A stretch of DNA of 16,797 bases from Vulcanimicrobiota bacterium (GTDB taxonomy: Bacteria; Vulcanimicrobiota; Vulcanimicrobiia; Vulcanimicrobiales; Vulcanimicrobiaceae): NCBI GenBank assembly GCA_003133025.1, contig PKZK01000021.1, positions 1-16,797 of the forward strand. The letters run 5' to 3'. Of the stretch, positions 464 to 13,146 are shown one piece after another. The notes under the pieces were generated by a model that was not told where the DNA came from, did not search any database, and saw only the letters and a list, made by a program, of their open reading frames with translations. Made by a program: the position numbers and the translations under genes. Every line of letters begins with the position of its first letter. The stretch's first letter is position 1.

Positions 464-3400
464 CTATCTCGAGGGGCTGCCGGTTTCTCGCTGCAGCTTG
501 CCTGAATCGCGCAACGCCAGGAATCGGGCGTTCCACGGAACGGCGGCGTATGCGGGTGCGAACTCGCCGATTGCCTTCGCTCGCTCATCGTAGAGGCGCG
601 ATGCTTCGGAGAGGTAGACCGCCGCTGCCTCACTGAGACCGCGGTGTTCGGCGACGAGAGCACGCGCCCAAGCCATCAGGTGAGGGAATTCCTCGCCGCT
701 CTGCAGCTCCTGCGGGAGTGCCGCGAGCTCGCGTTCGAGCGCATCCGCGCGCGCGTCAGCCCGGGCGTCGAGTGCCGACACGATCGCAAATGCCAACGTG
801 AGGGCAGAGAGCACGCTCGGCGGTTTCTCGCGGTGAATGGCGAGCGCGCGGTCGAACTCGGCCGCCGCGGTGGTCTCGCGCCCTTCAGCCGCGTGTGCGA
901 GCGCACGGCAGAGGTGCACGTTGGCCTCTTCGATCGTGCCGAACCCGGTGCAGTATTCAGCGATTGCGTCGAGCAGCGCCGGCACTTTGCGCGCATTGCC
1001 GGTATAGAGGTCGACCAGGGCGAGCCCGATCGTGCAGGCTACGCGTACGGCGACGGTCGCGTCCTCTCCGTAGTGGAGCCCTTTCCGATAGAGCGTCCTC
1101 GCCGTTTCGTAGTCGGCCGTCCAGGCGGCCAGGTTTGCTACCTGGAGTTCGTGACCGTCGGCCGCACGCAAGCCGAGCCGGCGCAAGACGTCGACTGCGG
1201 CAGAGAAGTGCGCGCGCGCGTCGGCGAAGCGCTGTTCGTTGATGGCTAGGTTACCCAGCCTGTTGTGCGCCTCGGCTTCGGTGCTCGGATCGCCGCTGCG
1301 CCTCGATTCGTCCAAGAGGCGAGTCGCCGCGGCGAACACTTCGCTGCCCCGCGCCCCGCGGCGCTGTGCCAGCAACGTCTTTACGCGCAGAATCCGCAGG
1401 AGCCCGCGCGCGTCGTCGGGTGCGAGCGCCCGTTCGGCGGCCGCGAGCGCGTCGGCGGCGTGCCGGTAGCGGTCCATCGTGATCGCGATCGTGGCCGATT
1501 CGATGTGCGCTTGCACGATCGCGTTTGCATCTCCCGTACTCTCGGCCGCGGCGAGAAAACGCTCCGCCGCGTTCTGCGCTTCGGCGAAACGATCGTGCGC
1601 GACCGCGTCCACCGCCCGCAGTCGCTCGACCTCGGGCAGCTGCTGGGGTGTAAGCGTCGCCGTCGACAAGGCGGCTAGCGCCGCGGTGCGTACGTCGAGC
1701 CTGCCGGCGAGCGTCGCTGCGGAAGCGCGAAGGATGTGCATGTCGACCGCATGCGCCGGCGTGTCGGACAGTGCCAGCGCGCGCTCGGCGTACGTCAGCG
1801 CTTCTTCATTCGCATACAGCGCCAGAGCGTGGCGTGCGGCAGCGGCGTAGCTTCGCGCCGCCCGTACCGGATCGCCCCCGCGCTCGAAGTGCGCCGCGAT
1901 CTCGGCAGAGTGGTCCGGCCGCTCGCCGAAGAGCTTGGTCTCGGCGTGGGCCACGAGCGCGTGGCGTTGCCGCAGAACCTGCGCGTCGAGCGCTTCGTAA
2001 ACGGCAGCTTGCACGAGATGGTGCGTGAAGGCGTAATCGCCTAAAGCCGCGCGCCGGCCGCGGCGCGCGAATCGCGCTTCAACTAATTCGTCGAGCGCTT
2101 GCACGACATCGAACTCGCTCCAGCCGGATACCTCGCAGAGCAGCTCGATCGTGAAGCCCGACCCCGCAACGACGGCAATCTCGAGCAGCGCGCGAGCCGC
2201 GTCCGTCAGCGCGGCGATCCGCGCAGGCACGTTGAGTCGCGATGCAATCTGGTTCCTCCGCCCCGCATAGACCGCCTCATCCAAAAAGAGCGGCACGCCT
2301 TCGCTGTATGCGTAGAGTTCGTTGGCCCGCTCCTCGACGGCTCGCCCTTCGCCCACGCGTTCCGGAAGCCGCCGAAGGAGTTCGAGCAAGGCATCCCGCT
2401 GCAGGCGCCCCACGGGAAGCGCCTCGAGGATGCCTTCTGCTTCGAGTCGCCGCCGCAGTGCCCGCAAAGGATGCGTTCGGCCGACCCCCTCCTCGCGCGA
2501 GGTCGCGACGATCAACGCAGGCAGCCCGCTCGCACGCCGCGCCAAATACTCGATCAGCGAAGTGCTCGATGGCGTTGCCCAATGCAGGTCTTCCAAAACG
2601 ACGAGCAACGGCCGCTTGCGCGCAAGTTTCTCCAGTGCGGCAAAGAGCGTTTCGAAGATGCGCGCTCGCTCCGCATCGGGCGTTAGCGGCAGCGCACGCT
2701 CCACCGCACCGTGCACGACGATCTCGGGCAAGACCCCGGCCAGGATGCCGGCTTCAGCGCGAGTGAGTTCGCGTACGAGCAACGGAAGCGCGCCGCGCAA
2801 TGCGTCGGCAACCGCCTCGTACGGTCGCGCTTCGCCCGGCGTCGTCGAGCCGATCAGCACTCCGCCGCCCTGGCTCTCGGCGTGCAGGGCGAGTTCCTGG
2901 GAAAGTCGAGACTTGCCGGCGCCGGCCTCACCAGAGAGCAGGATCGTGCGTCCATGTCCGCGCGCGGCTTCGGCCCACGCGCGCGTCAAGGCGGCGAACT
3001 CGCGCTCGCGGCCGACGAAAGGCAGCAGCTTCTCCTCGCGCGCCGGCGCCTCGGACGGCGCCGGCCCTTCGACTGCCGGCGCCTCCCCGCGAACGAGCGC
3101 TTCGAAGGTGGTGCGCGTGTCGGGCGCAGGTTCGACGCCGAGCTCATGCTGCAAGCGTTCCGCGAACGAACGGTAGGCGGCCAGAGCGCCGCTCCGGTCG
3201 CCCAACTCCGCGCGCACGAGCATCTCTATCCGCAGCGCGTCTTCGCGCCAGGGGTCGATCGCGAGAATGCGGCCGATGTCGGCGAGGGCTCCGGCGAAAT
3301 CCCGTTCGCCGCGCTTGCGCCGTACCGAGCGTCGCAACGCGTCGAGTTGCTGCTCGCGAAAGCGCTCGCGCTCGGTGAGAATCCAATCGTCGTTGTGACC

Positions 3401-3784
3401 TTCGAGAAAGGCTCCGCCATAGTGCGCGATCGCCTCGTCATAGCTGCGGGCCGCGTATGCTTCCGCAAAGGCGATCACGTCAACCGAGACGGCGTCCTGA
3501 ACGTTCCAGCGGATGCTCTGCATCGCCGCCGTCAGCAGCGGCTCGGGCGACACGTGCGCCAGGGCCCGGGCTAACACGTGCAGGTTGCGGCGAAGCTTGC
3601 CGCGGCCGCCCTCGGGCTCGTCGTCGGGCCAGAGGAGCGTCGCCAAGAAGTCTCGGGACGTCGGCGCGTCGCGGTGCGTCGCCAAGTAGGCCAACGCCTC
3701 GACGGCCTTGGCCGGAGCGCGGAGCGGTTCGATCGCTCCGTCGATGTCGACCCGCACTTGCCCGAACAGCCGGATCGTCAGCAC
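464..3784 (-). CDS. SARP/AfsR-family transcriptional regulator: OmpR-like winged helix + BTAD + STAND-type AAA ATPase + TPR-like region (~1106 aa)
   Basis: N-terminal LTIRLFG...ALAYLA...SRDFLATLLWPD...LRRNLHVL (wHTH). BTAD motifs VDVIAF, YGGAFLEG, DPWREDA, GDRSGALAAY, ELGVEP. LPFVGRERE, Walker A GEAGAGKS, Walker B LLVVLEDLHW, YAFTHHLVQAAVY, then Ala-rich helical repeats. GTG at 3784 is preferred over the ORF-track start at 3916, which overlaps the divergent gene and its promoter; the exact start is uncertain. Confidence 0.92.
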   Translation of the reverse strand: MLTIRLFGQVRVDIDGAIEPLRAPAKAVEALAYLATHRDAPTSRDFLATLLWPDDEPEGGRGKLRRNLHVLARALAHVSPEPLLTAAMQSIRWNVQDAVSVDVIAFAEAYAARSYDEAIAHYGGAFLEGHNDDWILTERERFREQQLDALRRSVRRKRGERDFAGALADIGRILAIDPWREDALRIEMLVRAELGDRSGALAAYRSFAERLQHELGVEPAPDTRTTFEALVRGEAPAVEGPAPSEAPAREEKLLPFVGREREFAALTRAWAEAARGHGRTILLSGEAGAGKSRLSQELALHAESQGGGVLIGSTTPGEARPYEAVADALRGALPLLVRELTRAEAGILAGVLPEIVVHGAVERALPLTPDAERARIFETLFAALEKLARKRPLLVVLEDLHWATPSSTSLIEYLARRASGLPALIVATSREEGVGRTHPLRALRRRLEAEGILEALPVGRLQRDALLELLRRLPERVGEGRAVEERANELYAYSEGVPLFLDEAVYAGRRNQIASRLNVPARIAALTDAARALLEIAVVAGSGFTIELLCEVSGWSEFDVVQALDELVEARFARRGRRAALGDYAFTHHLVQAAVYEALDAQVLRQRHALVAHAETKLFGERPDHSAEIAAHFERGGDPVRAARSYAAAARHALALYANEEALTYAERALALSDTPAHAVDMHILRASAATLAGRLDVRTAALAALSTATLTPQQLPEVERLRAVDAVAHDRFAEAQNAAERFLAAAESTGDANAIVQAHIESATIAITMDRYRHAADALAAAERALAPDDARGLLRILRVKTLLAQRRGARGSEVFAAATRLLDESRRSGDPSTEAEAHNRLGNLAINEQRFADARAHFSAAVDVLRRLGLRAADGHELQVANLAAWTADYETARTLYRKGLHYGEDATVAVRVACTIGLALVDLYTGNARKVPALLDAIAEYCTGFGTIEEANVHLCRALAHAAEGRETTAAAEFDRALAIHREKPPSVLSALTLAFAIVSALDARADARADALERELAALPQELQSGEEFPHLMAWARALVAEHRGLSEAAAVYLSEASRLYDERAKAIGEFAPAYAAVPWNARFLALRDSGKLQRETGSPSR

Positions 3785-3826
3785 GAGCAGCGCTTCAGCA
3801 ATCGGGCCGCCGCTTCCCGGGCCGCA

Positions 3827-3859
3827 TCGGACGCTTTTCCGACGGTCGCCCTGTAGCGT
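3827..3859 (+). promoter_or_regulatory. Putative SARP-binding box (TCGGACG-CTTT-TCCGACG) plus -10 element TAGCGT; probable leaderless promoter of the 62-aa gene
   Basis: Heptamer direct repeat with 11-bp period at 3827-3844, 9-nt spacer, TAGCGT at 3854-3859, and ATG 6 nt later at 3866 with no SD. Confidence 0.7.
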
Positions 3860-3865
3860 GGGCGG

Positions 3866-4054
3866 ATGGATAGCGCGGATGCGACGGCCGTTTTTATCGT
3901 GCGGATGTGGCGGCAAGGTGGGCCCGATTCGGACGCGGCGTGGCGCGGATCGGTCGAAGACGTGGGTGGCAAACGCCGCATATACTTCACGAACTTAGGC
4001 TCGATGTGCGAGTTCATGGTCGAACAGCGCGGCCACGCTACGAGAGAAGAATAA
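3866..4054 (+). CDS. Small hypothetical protein (62 aa) of a type I recall next to BTAD/SARP regulators
   Basis: AVFIVRMWRQ...AWRGSVEDVGGKRRIYFTNLGSMCEFM has a globular beta-beta-beta-alpha-like pattern (FxxRxW...WRGxVE...F..L..L..F). It fits exactly between two promoter boxes. Confidence 0.75.
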   Translation: MDSADATAVFIVRMWRQGGPDSDAAWRGSVEDVGGKRRIYFTNLGSMCEFMVEQRGHATREE

Positions 4055-4140: not shown

Positions 4141-5112
4141 ATGTCCCACTCGTTCCCGGGAAAACGTTCCCCCCGTCTCACAATCTTCGCGGCCGCAGTC
4201 GCGGTCGCACTCGCCGGGTGCTCCGGCACTTCGGCCGGCTTGTCACCTGCAACGAACGGCGGCGCCTCGACATCCTCGTTCGCGCACTCCGGTCTCACCG
4301 GTCCCTTTTCAGGCCTCCTCGGCGGCCCACTCGCGGGCCCGCTACAAAAACTCTACATCGCGGGCTATACGAGTAATACGATCTCGACCTACACCACCGA
4401 CGGAAAGCCGAGCACGCCCACGATCACGGGCCTCGACGGCCCGGTCGGCATCGCGGTCGACGCCGCCGGAAAGATCTACGTTGCCGACAGCAGCTCCCTC
4501 CCGAATACCGGCCAAATCCTGACCTTCAATCCGGATGGATCGCCGGCGAGCCCCACCATTACCACGGGTCTCTCGCAGCCGTTTGGAGTGGCGGTCGACG
4601 CAAACGGGAAAATCTACGTCGCCAACTATAACGGCAACTCGGTCACGACGTACCTTGCAGACGGCACGCAAACGAGTCCGACCATCACCGGACTCCAGCA
4701 ACCAACCGACGTTAAGGTCGACGCGAACGGCAAAATCTACGTGAGCCAAAAAGGAACGGGCAGCTTCAACGGTTCCGTCACCACATACAATCCCGACGGA
4801 ACCCAGACGAAGCCGACCATCACCGCCGGCATCTCGCTGCCGCAATCGCTCGCCCTCGACGCACGAGGCAACATCTACGTCAGTAGCGACGCCTCAGACG
4901 AGATCACGACGTATACTCCACAAGGCAAACAGCGAAAGATAACCATGGCCGTCACGAACGGTGACCCCGGCTACATCGCAATCGGACCCACCGGCAAGGT
5001 CTACGTCACGAGTACGCACGGCTTCATGACGACCTTCACCAGAGGCGGCAAGCCCATCAAGCCGACGATCTCGGGCCTTCCGGAGCCGCCCCTAGGAATA
5101 GCGATTCATTAA
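4141..5112 (+). CDS. NHL-repeat beta-propeller lipoprotein (~323 aa)
   Basis: SD AGAGGAG at 4126-4132 before ATG 4141 (the ORF-track start at 3907 is too far upstream). Signal peptide with lipobox LAGC, a Gly/Ser linker, then about six repeats of TYxxDGxxxxPTITGLxxPxGIAVDAxGKIYV. Confidence 0.88.
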   Translation: MSHSFPGKRSPRLTIFAAAVAVALAGCSGTSAGLSPATNGGASTSSFAHSGLTGPFSGLLGGPLAGPLQKLYIAGYTSNTISTYTTDGKPSTPTITGLDGPVGIAVDAAGKIYVADSSSLPNTGQILTFNPDGSPASPTITTGLSQPFGVAVDANGKIYVANYNGNSVTTYLADGTQTSPTITGLQQPTDVKVDANGKIYVSQKGTGSFNGSVTTYNPDGTQTKPTITAGISLPQSLALDARGNIYVSSDASDEITTYTPQGKQRKITMAVTNGDPGYIAIGPTGKVYVTSTHGFMTTFTRGGKPIKPTISGLPEPPLGIAIH

Positions 5113-5217
5113 AACAGCCGCAAAGCGGACGCGGGAGTGCGTGGTGCCTCCCCGCCGCTAGGCCCCTTGCGTGCCGGTCGCTCGGGCGATCGGCGAGGCG
5201 CGCGACTTGACGAGGAG

Positions 5218-5368
5218 AGGCTGCGATGCGAACACGACCGACGAGATCGAAGCCGCCGACCACGGCATCGGCGCGGTCGATGCCGTCCGGCAGGCGATCG
5301 CACAATACCACGCCTCGCGCAACGCCTGGGCCTCCCCGAGCGTTTCAGGCTCGTGGCAAGCGCCTTAG
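5218..5368 (+). pseudogene. Remnant 3' end of a paralogue of the downstream glycoside hydrolase-like gene
   Basis: Translates GCDANTTDEIEAADHGIG--AVDAVRQAIAQY versus GWDANSTDDIEGADDGIGRSAVETVREQIRQY at 6619-6714. DNA 5218-5271 vs 6618-6671 matches at 47/54 positions by hand count. Ends at TAG 5366-5368. Confidence 0.75.
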
Positions 5369-6771
5369 CCGCTACCGTTCTCGCTACGCTCACGCTCGCT
5401 TCCCCGCAGAGCGCGGTTCCGAATGCGCCCTTGATCGTCGACGGCTCCAGCCGTGTCGTGGTCATGGAATACGAGGCCTGGTTTGGCCCGAAAGCCGTGG
5501 GCTTTCCGCTACGCGGGCAGTCGCCGCGGCCGCTCCTGACCTCACCCGACATGCAACCCTATGGCGGGGGCTACGATAGCGCCGATCCCGACGTCATCCG
5601 CAACCACATCACCAACCTTACCGCAATGGGCGCGGACGCGGCCATCGTCGAGCTGACCAATAACGTGAGTTGCATTTTCGACGACGGCGACGCTGCGGTG
5701 AATCCGGCGCTGCTCAACCCGTGCGGACAAACGACGGTCGCGCTCAATCGCAGCTTCAAGAAAAGCAATCAGCAGATTCGCGACAACGACGGGCTGATCT
5801 ACTCCGCCTGGTCGGAGCTCGGCACCAATCTGAAGATCATCCCGCTCTTGGCCTGTCAAGACAACGGCTGTTTGACGCCGTACAGCGCGAGCGGCTCGGC
5901 TACGGGCTTCGGCGTCGACCCGTGCCCGGCGATCCCGGGCATTCCGGTGGGCAACCTCGACGGCAACCCGGCGGTGAACGGCACGAACTCGTTCGAGAAA
6001 GAGATGGCTTGGTACGGCGAGCAGATGGCGCGCTATCCCAACCTCAACGTGATCTACGAAGGCAAACCGCTCGTTTTGATCTTTGCGCCGCCGGGCGTCG
6101 ACGACACGCCCTGCCTGATGAACGAGCTGCACGACAGCATCGTCGCCACGGGCCTCGATCGAAAGTACACGTTCCGCATGATGGGCGGGTATTTCGATAC
6201 CGACTCGACGTTCTGGGACGAGCCTGCGGGTTACGTGCCCACCGCGCCGACCCCGCTCAAGCGCGGCTTCGGCTTTTGGTGGTGGAGTTGGGTCGACCGG
6301 CTGAACCGGCGCTTCTCGTACTTTCCGTCGTACACGCCGGCGCCGCACGCACCGCGCGTGGAAAACCTCACCGTCTCGATCGCGACCGCCGGTCAGAACG
6401 GCTGGGGCACCTACCCGGACTCATGCCCACCTGCGCCACGCGAGAACCCGCCGCTGACGACGTGCAAACCGGGCACCGACTACTTCGTCGACGCGTCGCT
6501 GCGCGACGAAGACCACGTGCCCTATTCGACCTTCACCAATTTCATGTGCGTCGCGCGCAAGCTCGATCCGATCTTCCTGATGGTGCATCAGTTCAACGAA
6601 TTCTCGTTCGGCGATGAAGGCTGGGACGCGAACTCGACCGACGACATCGAGGGCGCCGACGACGGCATCGGTCGCAGCGCCGTCGAAACGGTGCGCGAGC
6701 AGATCCGGCAGTACGAGCCTACGGCCGCCAGAGGCCGATCGAGGAACCAACCCAGGTCATGTCGCGGTTGA
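5353..6771 (+). CDS. Secreted GH99/GH71-like glycoside hydrolase (TIM-barrel), substrate unknown
   Basis: Hydrophobic signal-like segment VASALAATVLATLTLASPQSA. Motifs MEYEAWFG, P...GGYDSADPDVIRNH...MGADAAIVE, YEGKPLVLIF and LMVHQFNEF...DEGW...DDIE resemble the GH99 clan. Start uncertain (GTG 5353 or slightly upstream); the ORF-track N-terminus 5137-5320 is Arg-rich out-of-frame read-through of the paralogue remnant. Confidence 0.6.
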   Translation: MASALAATVLATLTLASPQSAVPNAPLIVDGSSRVVVMEYEAWFGPKAVGFPLRGQSPRPLLTSPDMQPYGGGYDSADPDVIRNHITNLTAMGADAAIVELTNNVSCIFDDGDAAVNPALLNPCGQTTVALNRSFKKSNQQIRDNDGLIYSAWSELGTNLKIIPLLACQDNGCLTPYSASGSATGFGVDPCPAIPGIPVGNLDGNPAVNGTNSFEKEMAWYGEQMARYPNLNVIYEGKPLVLIFAPPGVDDTPCLMNELHDSIVATGLDRKYTFRMMGGYFDTDSTFWDEPAGYVPTAPTPLKRGFGFWWWSWVDRLNRRFSYFPSYTPAPHAPRVENLTVSIATAGQNGWGTYPDSCPPAPRENPPLTTCKPGTDYFVDASLRDEDHVPYSTFTNFMCVARKLDPIFLMVHQFNEFSFGDEGWDANSTDDIEGADDGIGRSAVETVREQIRQYEPTAARGRSRNQPRSCRG

Positions 6772-7936
6772 AGTCCACGCCGATCATCGCGCCGCGCGCG
6801 AGCCTGCACAGGTTGAGCGCGGGCACGAATTGCGCCGCATCGTCCGGACGCAAGTAGATCATGCGAATCTCGGCCTTGATGCCGCCGCCGTCGACCGCGC
6901 GCAGGCGCGGTGCGTACGTAATCTTCCGTTGCAGGCACCACGCGGCGCGCATGTCCGCCGGAATTGCCGCAACGTCGGCCGCGGTCGGGGCCACGTTGAC
7001 GCCGCCGCCCGCAAACGAGAAGAGCGGCTTGAGCACGTAGTTCTCCGTCAGGTCCGGCGGCACGTCGGAAAGCTCCGAAAGCAGTTGCGTGCGCGGCACC
7101 GCCGGATGGTCGAGAAACGGCAGCGAGTACTTCGACCAGATGAAAAACCAGTTCGGGTGCGGCGTCCACTCGACGTCCAACTCTTCGCGCAGGTCGAAGG
7201 GCAAAGTCACGCCCTTCTTCTCGAGTTCGTCGATGACGATGCGCCAGTAGATGCGCTCGACGGGAAGCTCGCGTCCGGCGTCGTCGCGGCGGAAAAGCCG
7301 CCGGCCGCGCTTTTCGAGCTTCGTCGGACAGACCGCATCCACGCCGAAGAGCGTCTTGCTCGCGCGAAAATCGCACGACGTCTTCTGCTCGGACGGATCG
7401 ATGTCGACGAGCGCGACGTGCGCGGGGTCGTGGTCGCCCACGATCGTCTCCCGTGCCAGCGCGAGGATCTGGTCGCGCGACAGACCGCCGAAGCGGCACG
7501 ACCACGGGCCCTCGAGGCCCGGCATCGTCGCAAGCTCCGCGCCCCACGCATCGGCCTGCATGACCTGGAAGCCGACCAGCGACGGAAAACCCTGCAGTTC
7601 GATCAGACGCGGGCCGAGCGTCCCGTCCGCCTCCTCGACGAGCGCGAAGTCGATGATGCCGAAGCTGGGCAGCGCCGTCTCGCCCGGGACGTGCCGGTCG
7701 GCGGGAATCGCGTCGCGCATGCGCGCGATCTTCTCCGGCAGACAGAGTTGCGCGAGGATCTCGTCGGCCGCGCGCACGCAGCGTTCGCGCAAGTCGGCCG
7801 AAAAGAAGACCGGCGTCTCCGCCAGCCGGAAGCCGATCTCGCGCCCGCCGGTGCGCGCGACCAGGTCGGCGGCATAGCGCGCGTAGACGGCGTCGCTAAA
7901 AGCCGCGTTGAAGTGCGCGCGGGCGCCCGGCTCCAC
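6719..7936 (-). CDS. Circularly permuted ATP-grasp amide ligase (glutathionylspermidine synthase-like)
   Basis: IDFALV...GPRLIELQGFPSL (N-terminally placed metal-binding D...E), ERIYWRIVIDE, HPNWFFIWSKYSLPFL, YVLKPLFSFAGGGV, WCLQRKITY. This motif order is typical of the permuted ATP-grasp. Confidence 0.72.
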   Translation of the reverse strand: MEPGARAHFNAAFSDAVYARYAADLVARTGGREIGFRLAETPVFFSADLRERCVRAADEILAQLCLPEKIARMRDAIPADRHVPGETALPSFGIIDFALVEEADGTLGPRLIELQGFPSLVGFQVMQADAWGAELATMPGLEGPWSCRFGGLSRDQILALARETIVGDHDPAHVALVDIDPSEQKTSCDFRASKTLFGVDAVCPTKLEKRGRRLFRRDDAGRELPVERIYWRIVIDELEKKGVTLPFDLREELDVEWTPHPNWFFIWSKYSLPFLDHPAVPRTQLLSELSDVPPDLTENYVLKPLFSFAGGGVNVAPTAADVAAIPADMRAAWCLQRKITYAPRLRAVDGGGIKAEIRMIYLRPDDAAQFVPALNLCRLARGAMIGVDFNRDMTWVGSSIGLWRP

Positions 7937-7953
7937 TGCGAAAGAACGCCGCG

Positions 7954-8976
7954 CTACGCTGCGCTGACGAGACCGTGGAGCTTTCGCTCGATCAGATCGC
8001 CGAACACGAAGCGCGCGACTTGCAGCCGCTGGTCGCGGCGGTCGTCGCGCAAAACGGGCAGCAGGCCCGAACGCTGACGAAACACGTCGGCGTTGATCTG
8101 GCCGCGCAGCAAGAGCCGCTCGAGAAGACCCTGCACGCGCTCGGGCGTGCCGATTTCAGGATGGCTGTTCACCGCGAAGACGCGCGGCGTCGCGCCGTCG
8201 GCCGCACGCGCGAACTCGAACATCGTGAGCGCCGAGCCGCGGCCGCCTTCGCCCGCGCTCTCGAAGGCGATCGGGCTCATGCCCGCCGGAAAGCTCGACG
8301 CGACCGGGATGAGGTCGTAGTAGCGCGACTCGAGCACCGGCAGCACCGGCCCCGGCAACTCGGCCAGCAACGGCTCGAACCACGGGTGCGCGCGCCCCGC
8401 GCCGGTCAGCACGTCGGCGCCCACGCCGCTCATCGCACCGCCCTTTTCCGGGCCGCGCAACACGGGTTGCGCGATGCCTGACCAGCGGCAGAGCAAACCG
8501 AACGTGTGGCACACGCCGTAGAGCGAGGCGCTCTCGTCGGCCAGGATCGCGTCGAACAGCGCCCACAGCGGCGCTTCCCACGAGGGGTCTTCTCGAATCT
8601 CGCGCGCGCCGTCGTCGCTGGTGTTGCGACGCGGGTCGAGGTGACCGGGGCCGCCGGTGCCCAGATAGAGATGGTGCCGCCCGCTCGCGTGATCGGGGAT
8701 CGCCAAGCCGTCGCGAATCGCATACGAAAGAACGCGGATCGTGCGTCCGCGTTCGTCCAATTCGTCCTGGTATTCCGAGGCCAAATCGTGCAAGAACGCG
8801 AGCATCGCATCGTGCCCCACGTTGGGATAACCGTGGTTCATGTCGAGCAGTGCGACGTCTATCGCAGCCGGATCGGCCGCGGGCAGATCGCCGGGCCGCT
8901 CCACCCGGACCACGTCGAAATGGCTCGTGCGCCAATCGATCGGTAGAACGTGAGCCGAGCGGATGGGCTCAAGCAA
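7954..8976 (-). CDS. Class I glutamine amidotransferase-like protein (amidotransferase or gamma-glutamyl hydrolase)
   Basis: Oxyanion motif GTGGPG, nucleophile elbow YGVCHTFG and C-terminal NSHPE give an intact Cys-His-Glu triad. TTG start overlaps the upstream stop by 8 nt. Confidence 0.82.
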   Translation of the reverse strand: MLEPIRSAHVLPIDWRTSHFDVVRVERPGDLPAADPAAIDVALLDMNHGYPNVGHDAMLAFLHDLASEYQDELDERGRTIRVLSYAIRDGLAIPDHASGRHHLYLGTGGPGHLDPRRNTSDDGAREIREDPSWEAPLWALFDAILADESASLYGVCHTFGLLCRWSGIAQPVLRGPEKGGAMSGVGADVLTGAGRAHPWFEPLLAELPGPVLPVLESRYYDLIPVASSFPAGMSPIAFESAGEGGRGSALTMFEFARAADGATPRVFAVNSHPEIGTPERVQGLLERLLLRGQINADVFRQRSGLLPVLRDDRRDQRLQVARFVFGDLIERKLHGLVSAA

Positions 8977-10084
8977 CGGGAACGCCCGCCTCTGTCTCGT
9001 CGATCACGTACTGCACCACGTCCTTCAGACTCCCGGTTTCCTTGAACACCGCCAACTGGCGATCCGCACCCGTGCCCCGGCGTATGATCTCGTACACGTA
9101 GCGGATTTCATCGGTCGTACCGAGTTCGCCCGCCACGTCGTCGACGAACTCCAAGAGTTCGATCAACAGGTCCTGGGTGGGCACCTCGGTCTTCTTACCC
9201 AGATCGATCAGCTTTCCGCCCAGGCCGAAACGTGCCGCCCGCCACTTGTTCTCATTTAACAAAGATCGACGGTATTGGCGCCAACCCTGGTTCCGATCGT
9301 ACAACTTCCAGAGCTTATAGGTGACCGCTTGGAAGAAGGCCGCCAGGCACATGACCTCGTCGATGCGCATCTGGGCATCGCAGATCCGGAATTCGAGCGT
9401 GGGATAGTAGGGGTGCACGCGCACGTCCCACCAGATCTTCTTGCCGTCGGTGATGCACCCGGTCGCGATGAGCGTGTTGAGGAAATCCTGGTATTCCATC
9501 CACGAGCCGAACGAGTCGGGCAATCCCGTGCGCGGGAAGCGCTCGAAGATTTTGGAGCGGTAGCTCATCCAGCCCGTCTCGATGCCCGTCCAGAACGGCG
9601 AGTTGACCGAGAGCGCGAAGATGTGCGGCAGAAAGTAGCGCACGCCGTTCATGATGGCCACGCGCGCTTCGTCGTCTTCGAGGCCGATGTGCACGTGCAA
9701 GCCGAAGATCAAGTTGGCTCGCGCGACCAACTGCAGGTCCTGGATCAGGCGATCGTAGTGCGCGCCGGGCGTCGTCGGCACGGTCGACCAGTGCGTGAAC
9801 GGATGCGTGCCGGCCGAGCCCACGCGCAGGCCGTTGCGCCGCGCGAGGTGCACGATTTCGCCGCGCAGCCGGGTGACCTCGCGCCGCGCCTCGGCGATAT
9901 CCGCGCACACCGGCGTGGTCAATTCGATCACCGGATCGTGCAGTTCGCGCTTCATCTGGTCGTGCAAGAGCGTGTTGCCCTCGGCAAACATCTGCTGGAT
10001 GTGCGATTTCAACTCGTACGTCGCCGGGTCGATGACCTGGAACTCTTCCTCGATGCCGACGGTGAAGGTAGGCCGTTCTGCCAT
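8969..10084 (-). CDS. ybdK: Carboxylate-amine ligase, YbdK/GCS2 family (glutamate--cysteine ligase 2-like, ~371 aa)
   Basis: FTVGIEEEFQVID, IELTTPVC, SAGTHPF, IFGLHVHIG, ALSVNSPFW, FPRTGLP, IWWDVRVHPYYPTLEFRICD, ENKWRAARFG. ATG at 10082-10084 overlaps the upstream TGA (TGATG). Confidence 0.93.
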   Translation of the reverse strand: MAERPTFTVGIEEEFQVIDPATYELKSHIQQMFAEGNTLLHDQMKRELHDPVIELTTPVCADIAEARREVTRLRGEIVHLARRNGLRVGSAGTHPFTHWSTVPTTPGAHYDRLIQDLQLVARANLIFGLHVHIGLEDDEARVAIMNGVRYFLPHIFALSVNSPFWTGIETGWMSYRSKIFERFPRTGLPDSFGSWMEYQDFLNTLIATGCITDGKKIWWDVRVHPYYPTLEFRICDAQMRIDEVMCLAAFFQAVTYKLWKLYDRNQGWRQYRRSLLNENKWRAARFGLGGKLIDLGKKTEVPTQDLLIELLEFVDDVAGELGTTDEIRYVYEIIRRGTGADRQLAVFKETGSLKDVVQYVIDETEAGVPVA

Positions 10085-11037
10085 CAGACGTGTCCTCGCG
10101 CCAGGGCCGTCGTTTGCGGCCACGCGCCGGTGAGTTCGAGGGGCAGGGGGTTGCGTACGCGATCGATCAGGGTCTCGGCCATCGCGTCGACGATCCAGGT
10201 GAAGTTCGCCGGGCCCACCGAGTGGGCGTCGGCGTCGGGTGCGGGGTTGGTGAAGTCGATCGCATACGGGATGCCGCCGCGCACGGCGAGTTCGACCGTG
10301 TTCATGTCGTAGCCGAGCGCTTCGGAGAGCGCCAGCGCGTCGCGGCGCAGCCGGGTCAGGAGCGCGGGCTCGGTGCGCGGCGCGTCGAGCACGTAGCGCA
10401 GGTGGTGCGGCTGTTTGGGATCGTAGCGCATCACGTGCACGTGCTTGCGCCCGATCACGTAAATGCGGTAGTAGTCCTCGAAATCGATCGCTTCTTGCGC
10501 CATCATCGTCAGGTCGCGCGTGTTATCGTATGCCGCGAAAAACTCGGCGGGCGTGTCGCACTTGTACACGTCCTTCCAACCGCCGCCGTACGCCGGCTTC
10601 AAGAAGATGGGAAAGCCTAAATAGCCGAAGACTTCGTCCCAATCCACCAGGCGCAGGTTGCGAAACGAGTTGGCCTCCGTGTTCGGCGGCCGGTCCTTGT
10701 GCGGCAGCAGCACGGTGCGCGGCGTGGCTACGCCGACCGACTCGGCCACGATGTTCCCGAAGTACTTGTCGTCGGCCGACCACCAGAACGGGTTGTTCAC
10801 GACCTGCACGCCGCGCGCCGCGGCCACTTTGAGAAACGTGCGGTAGTACGGCACTTCGTGGCTGATCCGGTCGAGAATCAACGCGTAATCGAAGTGCTGC
10901 GTGTCGCGCAGGTACGAGATCTCGACGGGCGCGGCGGTGATTTCGCCGCCGCCCCGCGCGTCGATAGCGTTGATCAGGGCCCACGGGAACGTGTCTTCCA
11001 TCCCGAAGAGCAACCCGATCCGCCGAACGGTCGACAC
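10084..11037 (-). CDS. ATP-grasp ligase, RimK/glutathione synthetase-like (~317 aa)
   Basis: ILDRISHEVPYYR, VVNNPFWWSADDKY, GVATPRTVLLP, FPIFLKPAYGGGWKDVYK, MAQEAIDF, TVELAV...YAIDFTNPAPD. GTG at 11035-11037 is preceded by a G-rich SD-like GGGGGTG; the ORF-track start at 11175 overlaps the divergent esterase. Confidence 0.85.
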   Translation of the reverse strand: MSTVRRIGLLFGMEDTFPWALINAIDARGGGEITAAPVEISYLRDTQHFDYALILDRISHEVPYYRTFLKVAAARGVQVVNNPFWWSADDKYFGNIVAESVGVATPRTVLLPHKDRPPNTEANSFRNLRLVDWDEVFGYLGFPIFLKPAYGGGWKDVYKCDTPAEFFAAYDNTRDLTMMAQEAIDFEDYYRIYVIGRKHVHVMRYDPKQPHHLRYVLDAPRTEPALLTRLRRDALALSEALGYDMNTVELAVRGGIPYAIDFTNPAPDADAHSVGPANFTWIVDAMAETLIDRVRNPLPLELTGAWPQTTALARGHV

Positions 11038-11125
11038 TTTTACACCCCCGCCATGTTCGCGAAAAAAACTTGAGCGCGACGCATTCGAGGGAACCGGCGC
11101 GGGCCCTATGCAATTGGGAGCGCCG

Positions 11126-11833
11126 ATGAAACGTACGCACGAAGCCTGGTTTAGCCCCAATCTGGGCCGGAGCATGGAGTTGCTGTGGTTCGGATGGTCG
11201 GGCTTTCCGGTGATCGCCTTCCCGACCTCGATGGGCCGCTACGTCCAGTATGAGGACACGGGGCTCGTCGCCCACATCGCCGACAAGATCGAGGCGGGGT
11301 ACCTGCAACTGATCTGCGTCGATTCCGTCGACGCCGACACGTGGTACGACGAGCACATCCCCCCATCCGAACGTGGCCCGCGCCACGAGCGCTACGACGC
11401 GTACATCGCCGATGAGATCGTGCCCTACGTGCACGCCCGCGCCCAGCGCGGCGACCTCGGCGTCTTCGGCTGCAGCTTCGGCGGCTATCACGCGGCGAAT
11501 TTCGCCGGCCGGCACCCGGACCTCGTGACCAAGGCAGTCTGCCTCTCGGGCGTCTACGACGTCCGGCGTTTTACCAACGGCTACTTCGGCCTGACTGAAT
11601 ACCTCAACTCGCCCGTCGAGTACATCGCGAACATGGACGACGAGTGGGTTCGCCGCCTGGCCCGCATCGAGTGGGTCATCGCAACCGGCGAATACGACTC
11701 CCTGGTCGACGACAACCGCCGCTTCAGCGCCGTCCTGGGCTCCAAGGGCATCCCCAACCACACCGAGATTTGGAGCGGCGTGTTCGGCCACGACTGGCCG
11801 TTTTGGAACGAGGCCGTCCGCCGGCTGCTCTAG
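11126..11833 (+). CDS. Alpha/beta-hydrolase, putative esterase family (~235 aa)
   Basis: SD GGGAG at 11116-11120 before ATG 11126. SPNLGRSMELLWFG, FPTSMGR, nucleophile elbow GCSFGGYHA, LSGVYD, catalytic His in GHDWPFW. Confidence 0.88.
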   Translation: MKRTHEAWFSPNLGRSMELLWFGWSGFPVIAFPTSMGRYVQYEDTGLVAHIADKIEAGYLQLICVDSVDADTWYDEHIPPSERGPRHERYDAYIADEIVPYVHARAQRGDLGVFGCSFGGYHAANFAGRHPDLVTKAVCLSGVYDVRRFTNGYFGLTEYLNSPVEYIANMDDEWVRRLARIEWVIATGEYDSLVDDNRRFSAVLGSKGIPNHTEIWSGVFGHDWPFWNEAVRRLL

Positions 11834-12231: not shown

Positions 12232-13146
12232 TCACAAGATGCTCTTGCCCAGCGCCGAGAGGATCAGTTGCACCGCGAGGTCGGCCGTGCGGTTGCGCTC
12301 GTCGAAGATGGGGTTGAGTTCGGTGATCTCGAGCGAGCCGAGCCGGCCCGTTTCGGCCACCATCTCCATGGCCAGGTGGGCTTCCCGGTAGGAGAGGCCG
12401 CCCCGGACCGGCGTGCCGACCCCAGGCGCTTCGCTCGGGTCGATGCCGTCCAGGTCGAAGGAAACGTGCAGCGCCTCTCCGTCGCCGGAGGCGATGGCGA
12501 TCGCTTCTTCCATCACGCGCTCCATGCCGACCTTATCGATGTGGCTCATCGAAAAGGCGCGCACCCCGAGTTCGCGGATGCGCCGCTTCTCGCCGGCATC
12601 CACGTCGCGCAGCCCGACGAGCACGGTCCGCGAGGCGTCGATCGAGTGCTCCTCGAGCGCGATCGAGACGGGCATGCCGTGCACGTTGCCCGAGCCCGAG
12701 GTCAGGGGCGTGTTGATGTCGCCGTGGGCGTCCACCCAGATCAGGCCGGGCGCGCGTTTGCGCGCTCGCGAAACGCCGGCCAGCGTGCCGATGGCGATCG
12801 AGTGGTCGCCGCCGAGCACGAGCGGGAAGCCGCCGCGCCGCACCGTCTCTTCGACGAGATGTGAGAGCTGCTCGCAGACGGCCAGAATGATCGGCAAATA
12901 CTTCGCGTTTTTGGTCGCCTCTGCCGCGAGCGACTCGGCGACGGGCACCGGAACGTTGCCGTGGTCGACGACCGACTCGACACCCAGGGCCAAGAGGCGC
13001 TCGCGCAACCCGGCGTAGCGGATCGCGGACGGTCCCATGTCGACCCCGCGCCGGTCGGCGCCGAGGTCCATCGGCACGCCGATCACTTCGACGAGTCCGG
13101 GCGTGCGGTGCTGCGGCGTCTGAGCGGACGGTGCGGTGGAAAGCAT
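12232..13146 (-). CDS. rocF: Arginase
   Basis: GVPMDLGADRRGVDMGPSAIRYAGL, GGDHSIAIG, WVDAHGDINTP..SGSGNVHGMP, SFDLDGIDP..APGVGTPVRGGLSYREAH, ELNP. All Mn-binding ureohydrolase motifs are present with the arginase-type SGNxHG. Confidence 0.95.
   Translation of the reverse strand: MLSTAPSAQTPQHRTPGLVEVIGVPMDLGADRRGVDMGPSAIRYAGLRERLLALGVESVVDHGNVPVPVAESLAAEATKNAKYLPIILAVCEQLSHLVEETVRRGGFPLVLGGDHSIAIGTLAGVSRARKRAPGLIWVDAHGDINTPLTSGSGNVHGMPVSIALEEHSIDASRTVLVGLRDVDAGEKRRIRELGVRAFSMSHIDKVGMERVMEEAIAIASGDGEALHVSFDLDGIDPSEAPGVGTPVRGGLSYREAHLAMEMVAETGRLGSLEITELNPIFDERNRTADLAVQLILSALGKSIL

Follow-up and report, generated by a model that had tools for sequence, protein, structure and literature searches.

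A conserved multi-phylum cassette of amide ligases and hydrolases that probably makes and turns over a small glutamate-containing peptide

The window, a stretch of 16,797 nucleotides from a Vulcanimicrobiota bacterium (contig PKZK01000021.1), holds a compact cluster of five genes, here called A to E, all of which are open at the coordinates given. Gene A (positions 10084 to 11037, minus strand, 317 aa, with a GTG start preceded by a GGGGG purine run) encodes a RimK/LysX-like ATP-grasp ligase; gene B (8969 to 10084, minus strand, 371 aa) a carboxylate-amine ligase of the GCS2/YbdK fold, PRK13515 subfamily; gene C (7954 to 8976, minus strand, 340 aa, from a TTG start whose exact position is uncertain) a cysteine hydrolase of the class-I glutamine-amidotransferase fold; and gene D (6719 to 7936, minus strand, 405 aa) a circularly permuted ATP-grasp ligase with the fold of YgiC, GspS and eukaryotic glutathione synthetase. 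Gene E (11126 to 11833, plus strand, 235 aa), for an alpha/beta-hydrolase (putative esterase, PF00756), is divergent from A in the window, whereas in most other lineages it lies upstream of A and in the same direction. The stop codon of A and the start codon of B have 1 nt in common (TGATG), B and C overlap by 8 nt, and 17 nt separate C from D; the layout given in the original prediction, with these overlaps and gaps between four coupled genes on the minus strand and an esterase divergent from them, was confirmed at the sequence level. The 88 nt between A and E (11038 to 11125) are likely a shared promoter region; a promoter scan of this region returned no sigma-70 site, and the terminator scan run with it showed no excess. 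Metatranscriptome contigs from three runs cover short stretches of B and C at a depth of 3 to 6; these reads may come from DNA carry-over, and two of the runs yielded the same contigs, perhaps because they are a single data set. In the window, the cluster is flanked by genes for an arginase (400 nt from E), an AI-2E transporter, a BMP ABC transporter, an NHL protein and a SARP-type regulator, which we take to be local because none of them appears in the neighbour clusters common to at least 4 of the 80 loci described below.

None of A, C and D has a Pfam match at an E value of 0.01 (for D, neither PF03738 nor PF14403 is matched), and PDB searches with their sequences, single or as profiles, gave weak matches only. 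The predicted model of A (pLDDT 90.7) adopts, along its full length, the ATP-grasp fold of RimK (Z 22.3, rmsd 2.9, 267 residues aligned), with ArgX (Z 21.5) and LysX/ArgX (Z 21.2) close behind and GshB further away (Z 17.0). This bears out A as an ATP-grasp enzyme, nearer to RimK/LysX than to GshB, and neither A nor any other protein of the genome matches PF02955 (GshB). The residues K147, G151-G153, E249, D261 and N264 are invariant in all 41 aligned sequences, within a motif that reads E249...D261-F-x-N264-P-A-P-D268. RimK and LysX/ArgX act on protein C-termini. Although they are the closest folds to A, they have E-x-N where A has D-F-x-N and share only 12 to 14% identity with it; A scores 20.4 bits against TIGR00768, far under the cut-off of 143.4, and a LysW-like carrier was not found among the short ATG-started ORFs around the cassettes (120 loci).

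The model of D (pLDDT 94.4) resembles ten permuted ligases at Z scores of about 19 to 25, against at most 8 for unpermuted ones, with YgiC (Z 25.5, rmsd 3.2, 330 residues aligned) and GspS/Gss (Z 23.6) among them; Foldseek also supports the permuted fold (E value 2e-13), the model matches glutathione synthetases, and Cp1B is likewise one of the closest solved folds. The prediction of a permuted ATP-grasp therefore stands on fold, without a Pfam match, and one D homologue reaches 14.3 bits against PF03738, below the cut-off of 29.3. Permuted ATP-grasps carry the catalytic motif R-x-D ... E-x-N, which in D becomes x-x-D96...E113-L-Q115: arginine occurs at position 94 in none of 48 sequences and glutamine replaces asparagine at position 115 in all 48, the same set in which D96, E113, K269, K303, E356, R358 and R378 are invariant. 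Because the arginine of R-x-D is missing and E-x-N has glutamine for asparagine, the chemistry of D may differ from that of its relatives. Pairwise profile alignments of D with YgiC and Gss were too weak to map residues, and a complex prediction for A with D scored 0.00, carrying no weight for or against. YgiC has peptide-spermidine ligase activity (PMC11762307) and Cp1B couples a dicarboxylic acid with an amino acid (PMC12568646).

The remaining assignments of the original prediction held up as well, with one exception. B passes both NF010039 (PRK13515; 503.9 bits, cut-off 371) and PF04107 (223.4 bits, cut-off 21; E value 5e-66), as expected of a YbdK/GCS2 ligase, and is the only GCS2 gene of the genome; it shares 27% identity with E. 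coli YbdK across 354 aa, and the conserved motifs GxExE, HxH, WxDxR and ExR align between the two, but it belongs to PRK13515 and not to the YbdK model PRK13516 (233.7 bits, below the cut-off of 425). C has a Cys-His-Glu triad (C156-H272-E274) that is invariant in 19 of 19 sequences, a homologue search retrieved close relatives only, and its profile links (hhalign 99.6%) to a shorter family that matches the GATase family PF00117, in agreement with the proposed GATase-I. E matches PF00756 partially but above the cut-off (34.2 bits, cut-off 22) and keeps its S117-D191-H222 triad in 20 of 20 sequences, so that the putative esterase stands; the suggested link to S-formylglutathione hydrolase does not, as no NCBIfam model of that enzyme matched E at an E value of 0.01.

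We profiled the cassette outside Chloroflexota, Myxococcota and Planctomycetota. A occurs in at least 599 genome stretches counted at species level, and the plasmid collection contains no homologue. Among 80 loci found by A alone, many of which stop at contig ends, B is present in 73, E in 61, D in 53 and C in 19; on these counts, genes A to E are associated more than by chance. A panel of 151 genomes of one phylum, centred on a Bacteroidetes record, contains A in 39 genomes, 37 of them with a strong match (true A), though these genomes are related and the counts are not independent events. All 37 carry E and exactly one permuted ligase, either D (30 genomes) or a PF14403-like alternative, D2 (7 genomes), with no overlap between the two and neither present in the 114 genomes lacking a strong A; E also occurs in 7 genomes without A. 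D2 is distantly related to D (hhalign 72.5%), passes PF14403 at locus L112 (37.3 bits, cut-off 32) and has an invariant R-x-D ... E-x-N motif, with both Arg and Asn kept. The co-occurrence rule that emerges is E plus A plus D or D2 plus C or an M29 aminopeptidase, with B optional. These results support the view that the five genes form a single system of amide ligases and hydrolases that is conserved across several phyla, in line with the similar neighbourhoods in other phyla mentioned in the original prediction. Other families of the phylum to which the window belongs have distant paralogues of A, solitary and in 1 to 5 copies; of 30 such genomes, 9 gave no match in a search for D2-like genes, and only 4 carry B.

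The second either/or slot, between B and D, is filled by C in 19 of the 80 loci and by M29 in 50, never by both. In the panel, C occurs in 23 of the 37 strong-A genomes and the cassette-type M29 in 5 others, again without overlap; neither is found outside these 37, and 9 of them have neither. B exceeds its cut-off in 29 panel genomes, all with a strong A, and is missing from the other 8; since these 8 retain the rest of the cassette, B is likely an accessory part, and 3 of the 5 B-less genomes tested have no GCS2 gene at all. C is present in all 8 B-less genomes and absent from 14 that carry B, which argues against C as a dedicated partner of B. This sets C apart from the gamma-glutamylation/deglutamylation pairs PuuA/PuuD and EgtA/EgtC, in which, as here, a glutamate ligase lies beside a cysteine amidohydrolase. 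As C also adjoins D in 3 of 14 D loci where the genes are scattered (L152, L153 and L156), it tracks D and is likely a peptidase or amidase paired with it; the exchange with an M29 aminopeptidase suggests that C would act as a peptidase and not as an ammonia donor to a synthase partner. By analogy, D and C may form a synthetase-amidase pair comparable to the two-domain Gss of E. coli, in which a ligase of the same fold is also paired with a cysteine hydrolase. However, D is only 9 to 13% identical to Gss and YgiC and differs in its catalytic motif, the hydrolase here is a separate gene of the GAT-I fold or M29 type whereas that of Gss is a fused CHAP amidase, and no glutathione pathway was found in this genome, which is 80% complete.

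The cassette is real but not categorically new. Iyer, Abhiman, Burroughs and Aravind reportedly predicted, in 2009, a small-peptide neighbourhood of CP_ATPgrasp_2 (PF14403) in which a permuted ATP-grasp is said to accompany a GCS2 ligase, an alpha/beta hydrolase and an amidohydrolase, with an M20 peptidase as a neighbour. That neighbourhood shares the partners of the permuted ATP-grasp with our cassette, and D2 matches PF14403; yet the D of the window does not match this family and is distant from D2, and in the loci sampled here the alternative peptidase is M29 instead of M20. M20 is absent from the window and, in a sample without Chloroflexota, was seen only beside distant A paralogues at L190, L200 and L201. 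A characterised product or activity of the cassette was not found in the literature searched, which mostly excluded subscription papers and the 2009 survey, itself a possible description of this neighbourhood; within that literature, the earlier statement that such clusters have no identified product is upheld.

Taking together the folds, the intact catalytic residues and the co-occurrence rules found for the cassette, we propose, with a probability of about 0.6, that its enzymes assemble and recycle a small non-ribosomal peptide or peptide-amide that contains glutamate. The closest solved folds, RimK, ArgX and LysX for A and YgiC, GspS, glutathione synthetases and Cp1B for D, are those of peptide or amide ligases, although the chemistry is deduced from folds at 9 to 19% identity. 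A, B and D are presumably all catalytically active, and their GCS2 and RimK/LysX relatives point by analogy to glutamate as a building block. A and D would form two amide bonds in turn, B, where present, would supply or add a gamma-glutamyl amide, and C (with D) and E (with A) would undo the bonds made by the ligases. Of the original proposal, the small non-ribosomal peptide or amide survives as the best reading, while a strict GshA/GshB/GspS-like assembly line is not supported, given that 8 of the 37 genomes have the rest without the GCS2 ligase and A is nearer to RimK/LysX than to GshB. A role of the product in stress or as a reserve is conjecture. A bolder version, which we regard as unlikely, is that the cassette makes branched glutamyl oligopeptides of a new class, which at least six phyla of bacteria from soil, peat and water would use as a cyanophycin-like nitrogen reserve or as a stress protectant, with D and its Arg-less E-x-Q site as a mechanistically new amide ligase.

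The solo paralogues of A, and the action of its top folds (RimK, ArgX and LysX, Z 21-22) on proteins or protein carriers, would also fit reversible protein tagging, in which A, like RimK on S6, would attach glutamates to the C-terminus of a protein encoded elsewhere, the tag would be lengthened or branched by D and B, and C or M29 and E would trim it; the GCS2-fold PafA tags proteins (PMC2588565). We nevertheless consider tagging unlikely: 1,424 short ATG-started ORFs around the cassettes of 120 loci include no conserved small target, substrate or carrier, none of the cassette proteins has a conserved acidic C-terminus, the closest folds to D are all small-molecule enzymes, and A falls far short of the RimK family cut-off. 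Rather unlikely, too, is a cyanophycin-like reserve, an oligomer or polymer with a glutamate-rich backbone made by A, to whose side-chain carboxylates D and B would attach amino acids or amines and which C or M29 and E would break down again. E. coli RimK reportedly makes poly-alpha-glutamate (cited in PMC4431377), an arginase gene lies near E, and some loci have neighbours suggestive of reserves and glutamyl recycling: glgC (L051, L122), 4-alpha-glucanotransferase (L118), GH57 (L167), cyanophycin synthetase (L126), asparaginase_2 (three loci) and hydantoinase/5-oxoprolinase (L170, L181). Such neighbours, however, amount to 8 of 109 flanking proteins scanned, hand-picked from 548 listed, and none is conserved; links to glycogen/trehalose, cyanophycin, polyamine or thiol genes near the cassette are sporadic, never fixed, and an aminopeptidase would suit a short peptide equally well.

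Very improbable, in our view, is the glutathione analogue of the original prediction, a main low-molecular-weight thiol for which B would make gamma-glutamyl-cysteine and A and D would add further residues. The YbdK fold of B and the glutathione synthetase fold of D are compatible with it, and the thiol-gene check in this 80% complete genome came out partly in its favour: gshA (PF04262), gshB (PF02955) and bshC (PF10079) were not found, and the only hit was an MshC-like match below cut-off; bshC was likewise not found in genomes G014, G261, G043 and G044. But bshC is present in all 39 A-positive panel genomes, which argues against the cassette as a replacement for a missing thiol pathway, and also in the acidobacterial genome G045. 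Moreover, several cassettes dispense with B, thiol-dependent enzymes do not recur beside the cassette, and within the family to which the window belongs, the cassette ligase A is present in only 9 of 124 further genomes.

With a small glutamate-containing peptide or peptide-amide as its likely product, the cassette is a good lead to an undiscovered metabolite, but probably not to a glutathione substitute. With its either/or slots, D or D2 and C or M29, and its optional B, the cassette defines a minimal gene set and provides swap controls, so that the question of its function is directly testable. In one of the phyla sampled, about one-quarter of the genomes carry the complete core. Soil and peat are rich in Acidobacteriota and related groups, so a new and common metabolite would be relevant to both microbial physiology and peptide-ligase biocatalysis.

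The cassette comprises A, a RimK/LysX-like ATP-grasp (11037-10084), B, a GCS2 ligase (10084-8969), C, a GAT-I-fold cysteine hydrolase (8976-7954), and D, a permuted ATP-grasp (7936-6719), all on the minus strand, together with the alpha/beta hydrolase E (11126-11833, plus strand). As originally predicted, all five reading frames are open, with A and B overlapping by 1 nt, B and C overlapping by 8 nt, C and D separated by 17 nt, and A and E starting 88 nt apart in divergent orientation. The window is a complete contig from a 3.35-Mb genome (80% complete), and 14 of 24 listed metagenome runs (peat, moss, permafrost, plant) contain 0.81 to 0.96 of its words. Convergent with D, and overlapping it by 53 nt, is a 544-aa ORF (5137-6771, plus) that matched no Pfam or NCBIfam model; it is secreted-looking and, by eye, glycoside hydrolase-like. 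Further genes are a 1,150-aa BTAD-AAA-TPR regulator (464-3916, minus), with a divergent NHL-repeat lipoprotein-like gene (about 4141-5112, plus), and, 400 nt from E, an arginase (12232-13146, minus; TIGR01229 above cut-off), which is not a repeated neighbor among the shared neighbor clusters of 80 loci.

Profile matches, comparisons of predicted folds and conserved catalytic residues bear out the gene families first assigned by eye. The Pfam search of A, C and D returned no match. The predicted structure of A is closest to RimK (Z 22.3), ArgX (21.5) and LysX/ArgX (21.2), with D-Ala-D-Ala ligases (Z 19-20) and GshB (Z 17.0) lower. B scores above the cut-off of the PRK13515 carboxylate-amine ligase model and is 27% identical to E. 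coli YbdK. C keeps its Cys156, His272 and Glu274 triad in 19/19 sequences. An hhalign comparison (99.6%) shows it to be a homologue of a shorter family with matches to GATase and, weakly, to MetA. The Ser-Asp-His triad of E is invariant; in L021 and L187, E occurs in two tandem copies upstream of A. For the predicted structure of D, the strong matches are all permuted ligases (YgiC, Z 25.5; Gss, 23.6; Cp1B, 22.5; GS-like proteins, 19-23), versus a Z of 8 or less for unpermuted folds. Its ATP-site lysines do not vary, and neither do Glu356, Arg358 and Arg378. D is nevertheless unusual in its motif residues: arginine is absent two positions before Asp96 in 48/48 cases, and glutamine takes the place of asparagine in the E-x-N motif (E-x-Q) in 48/48 (the roles of the Asp96-Arg, E-x-N, ATP-site and Glu/Arg motifs are presumed here). 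Together, these results show that three of the proteins have amide-ligase folds and two have hydrolase folds, and that their catalytic-type residues are invariant. In one locus (L140:4890-7538), an 882-aa ORF fuses a sodium:solute symporter in frame with D, either a true fusion or an assembly artefact.

With A as query, species-representative genomes yielded at least 599 confirmed stretches, 80 of which were kept as loci. Most are from Acidobacteriota, and others are from records of Eremiobacterota/Vulcanimicrobiota, Gemmatimonadota, Eisenbacteria, Armatimonadota and Bacteroidota/Ignavibacteria. The partners of A in the 80 loci are B (73 loci), E (61), D (53) and C (19). The slot between B and D holds C in 19 loci, an M29 aminopeptidase in 50, both in none and neither in 11, within the DNA fetched. 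No other neighbor recurs in the fetched loci beyond lineage-specific synteny. An aldo/keto reductase gene, counted in 9 loci by neighbor clustering of the 80, lies 3' of M29 and often 5' of D in several Acidobacteriaceae cassettes (L049, L056, L072, L080, L090, L091 and L093). The cassettes of L116 (13358-14536), L112, L122 and L126 are joined by an additional ligase of the ATP-grasp_4 type and by another esterase family, E2. The kept cassette nearest the window's (L020, A 78% identical) is on a 4.8-kb contig titled Rhodospirillales, possibly mis-binned.

We searched each part in one panel of 151 genomes from the phylum to which G041 belongs; since these are related and partly incomplete, the counts give a pattern, not a statistical test. 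A occurs in 39 genomes (37 strong, 2 weak), E in 44, including all 37 strong-A genomes, and D in 30, while D2, a 452-aa PF14403-like permuted ligase distantly related to D, occurs in 7, exactly the strong-A genomes lacking D. C is present in 23 and a cassette-type M29 (E value < 1e-177) in five, all strong-A and all without C; 17 others have only generic M29 matches (1e-31 to 1e-39), and nine strong-A genomes have neither C nor cassette-type M29. B is above cut-off in 29 genomes, all strong-A, and below it in four more, three of them A-negative. All 8 of 8 genomes without B have C, and three of the five checked for GCS2 lack any such gene. Where the genes are scattered, A remains with B in many loci and C adjoins D in 3 of 14 fetched D loci. 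The pattern is a core of E, A and one of the two permuted ligases D and D2, to which C or M29 is usually added and B optionally; it shows that the cassette is passed on as a whole, with two slots that can each be filled in either of two ways.

Immediately 5' of D2 lie A paralogues (L170:6263-7243, L173:6627-7577, L181:6664-7638) that have lost the GGGW loop and D-F-x-N motif. They sit on long branches, with intact A copies elsewhere in the same genomes, and are possibly inactive scaffold partners of D2. Hydantoinase/5-oxoprolinase subunits 3' of D2 (L170:1612-2961, L181:9057-10406; two genomes, one family) hint at gamma-glutamyl recycling.

In a quick tree of A (130 of 161 sequences, 31 acidobacterial rows removed by subsampling), the window's A groups with Thermoanaerobaculia and members of its family in a clade of 35 rows (support 99), whereas A paralogues from other families in its own phylum fall elsewhere. 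A occurs in 9/124 other genomes of the window's family and, in another search, in 3/40 relatives, which means that the cassette is missing from most relatives. This placement, the patchy presence and a shared divergent E suggest horizontal gain. Across several parts of the tree, cassettes with C and cassettes with M29 are interspersed. In other families of the phylum there are distant A copies, 1-5 per genome and mostly solo; among 30 of 54 such genomes checked, 21 have D2-like genes and 4 have B above cut-off. This gene content shows the A family operating without B as well, and perhaps without a permuted partner. Longer distant relatives (410-500 aa; L167:6508-7743, L182, L200, L201) form their own clade, with GH57 or an M20 dipeptidase as neighbor.

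The original prediction proposed a glutathione analogue or gamma-glutamyl peptide. In keeping with the former, gshA, gshB and bshC were not found in the window's genome, which is 80% complete, and an MshC/CysRS-like match (G000:C32:4673-5881) stays below cut-off (312 versus 485 bits); that gene could be a cysteinyl-tRNA synthetase or a divergent thiol ligase. However, bshC is present in 143/151 panel genomes and the eight without it are all A-negative, so the cassette does not substitute for bacillithiol in these genomes, and a main low-molecular-weight thiol as product is very improbable. Reversible protein tagging, suggested by the resemblance of A to RimK, is unlikely, as no conserved target was found among the short ATG-started ORFs around cassettes in 120 loci; a reserve oligomer, with sporadic neighbor support only, is somewhat less likely still.

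The small-peptide part of the prediction is kept as the best and simplest reading: a small glutamyl peptide or amide would be built step by step and turned over (probability about 0.6). C, replaceable by an aminopeptidase, would cleave a short peptide as a peptidase or amidase; it would go with D, much like the amidase with the synthetase in E. coli Gss, and is the predicted hydrolase partner of that ligase. E would follow A, and B, a glutamate ligase by family, may be an optional supplier or decorator. According to the Pfam PF14403 entry, Iyer et al. (2009) reportedly proposed a system for small peptides in which a permuted ATP-grasp is accompanied by a GCS2 ligase, an alpha/beta hydrolase, an amidohydrolase and an M20 peptidase. 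The cassette of the window would work in a similar way, but its D fails PF14403, which makes it a variant of that system. We found no characterization of it in the literature searched, including passages of PMC2588565, PMC12568646, PMC4431377 and PMC11762307 and a citation in PMC6376114. The cassette is real, conserved and, in that literature, uncharacterized, with a minimal gene set that is now well defined.
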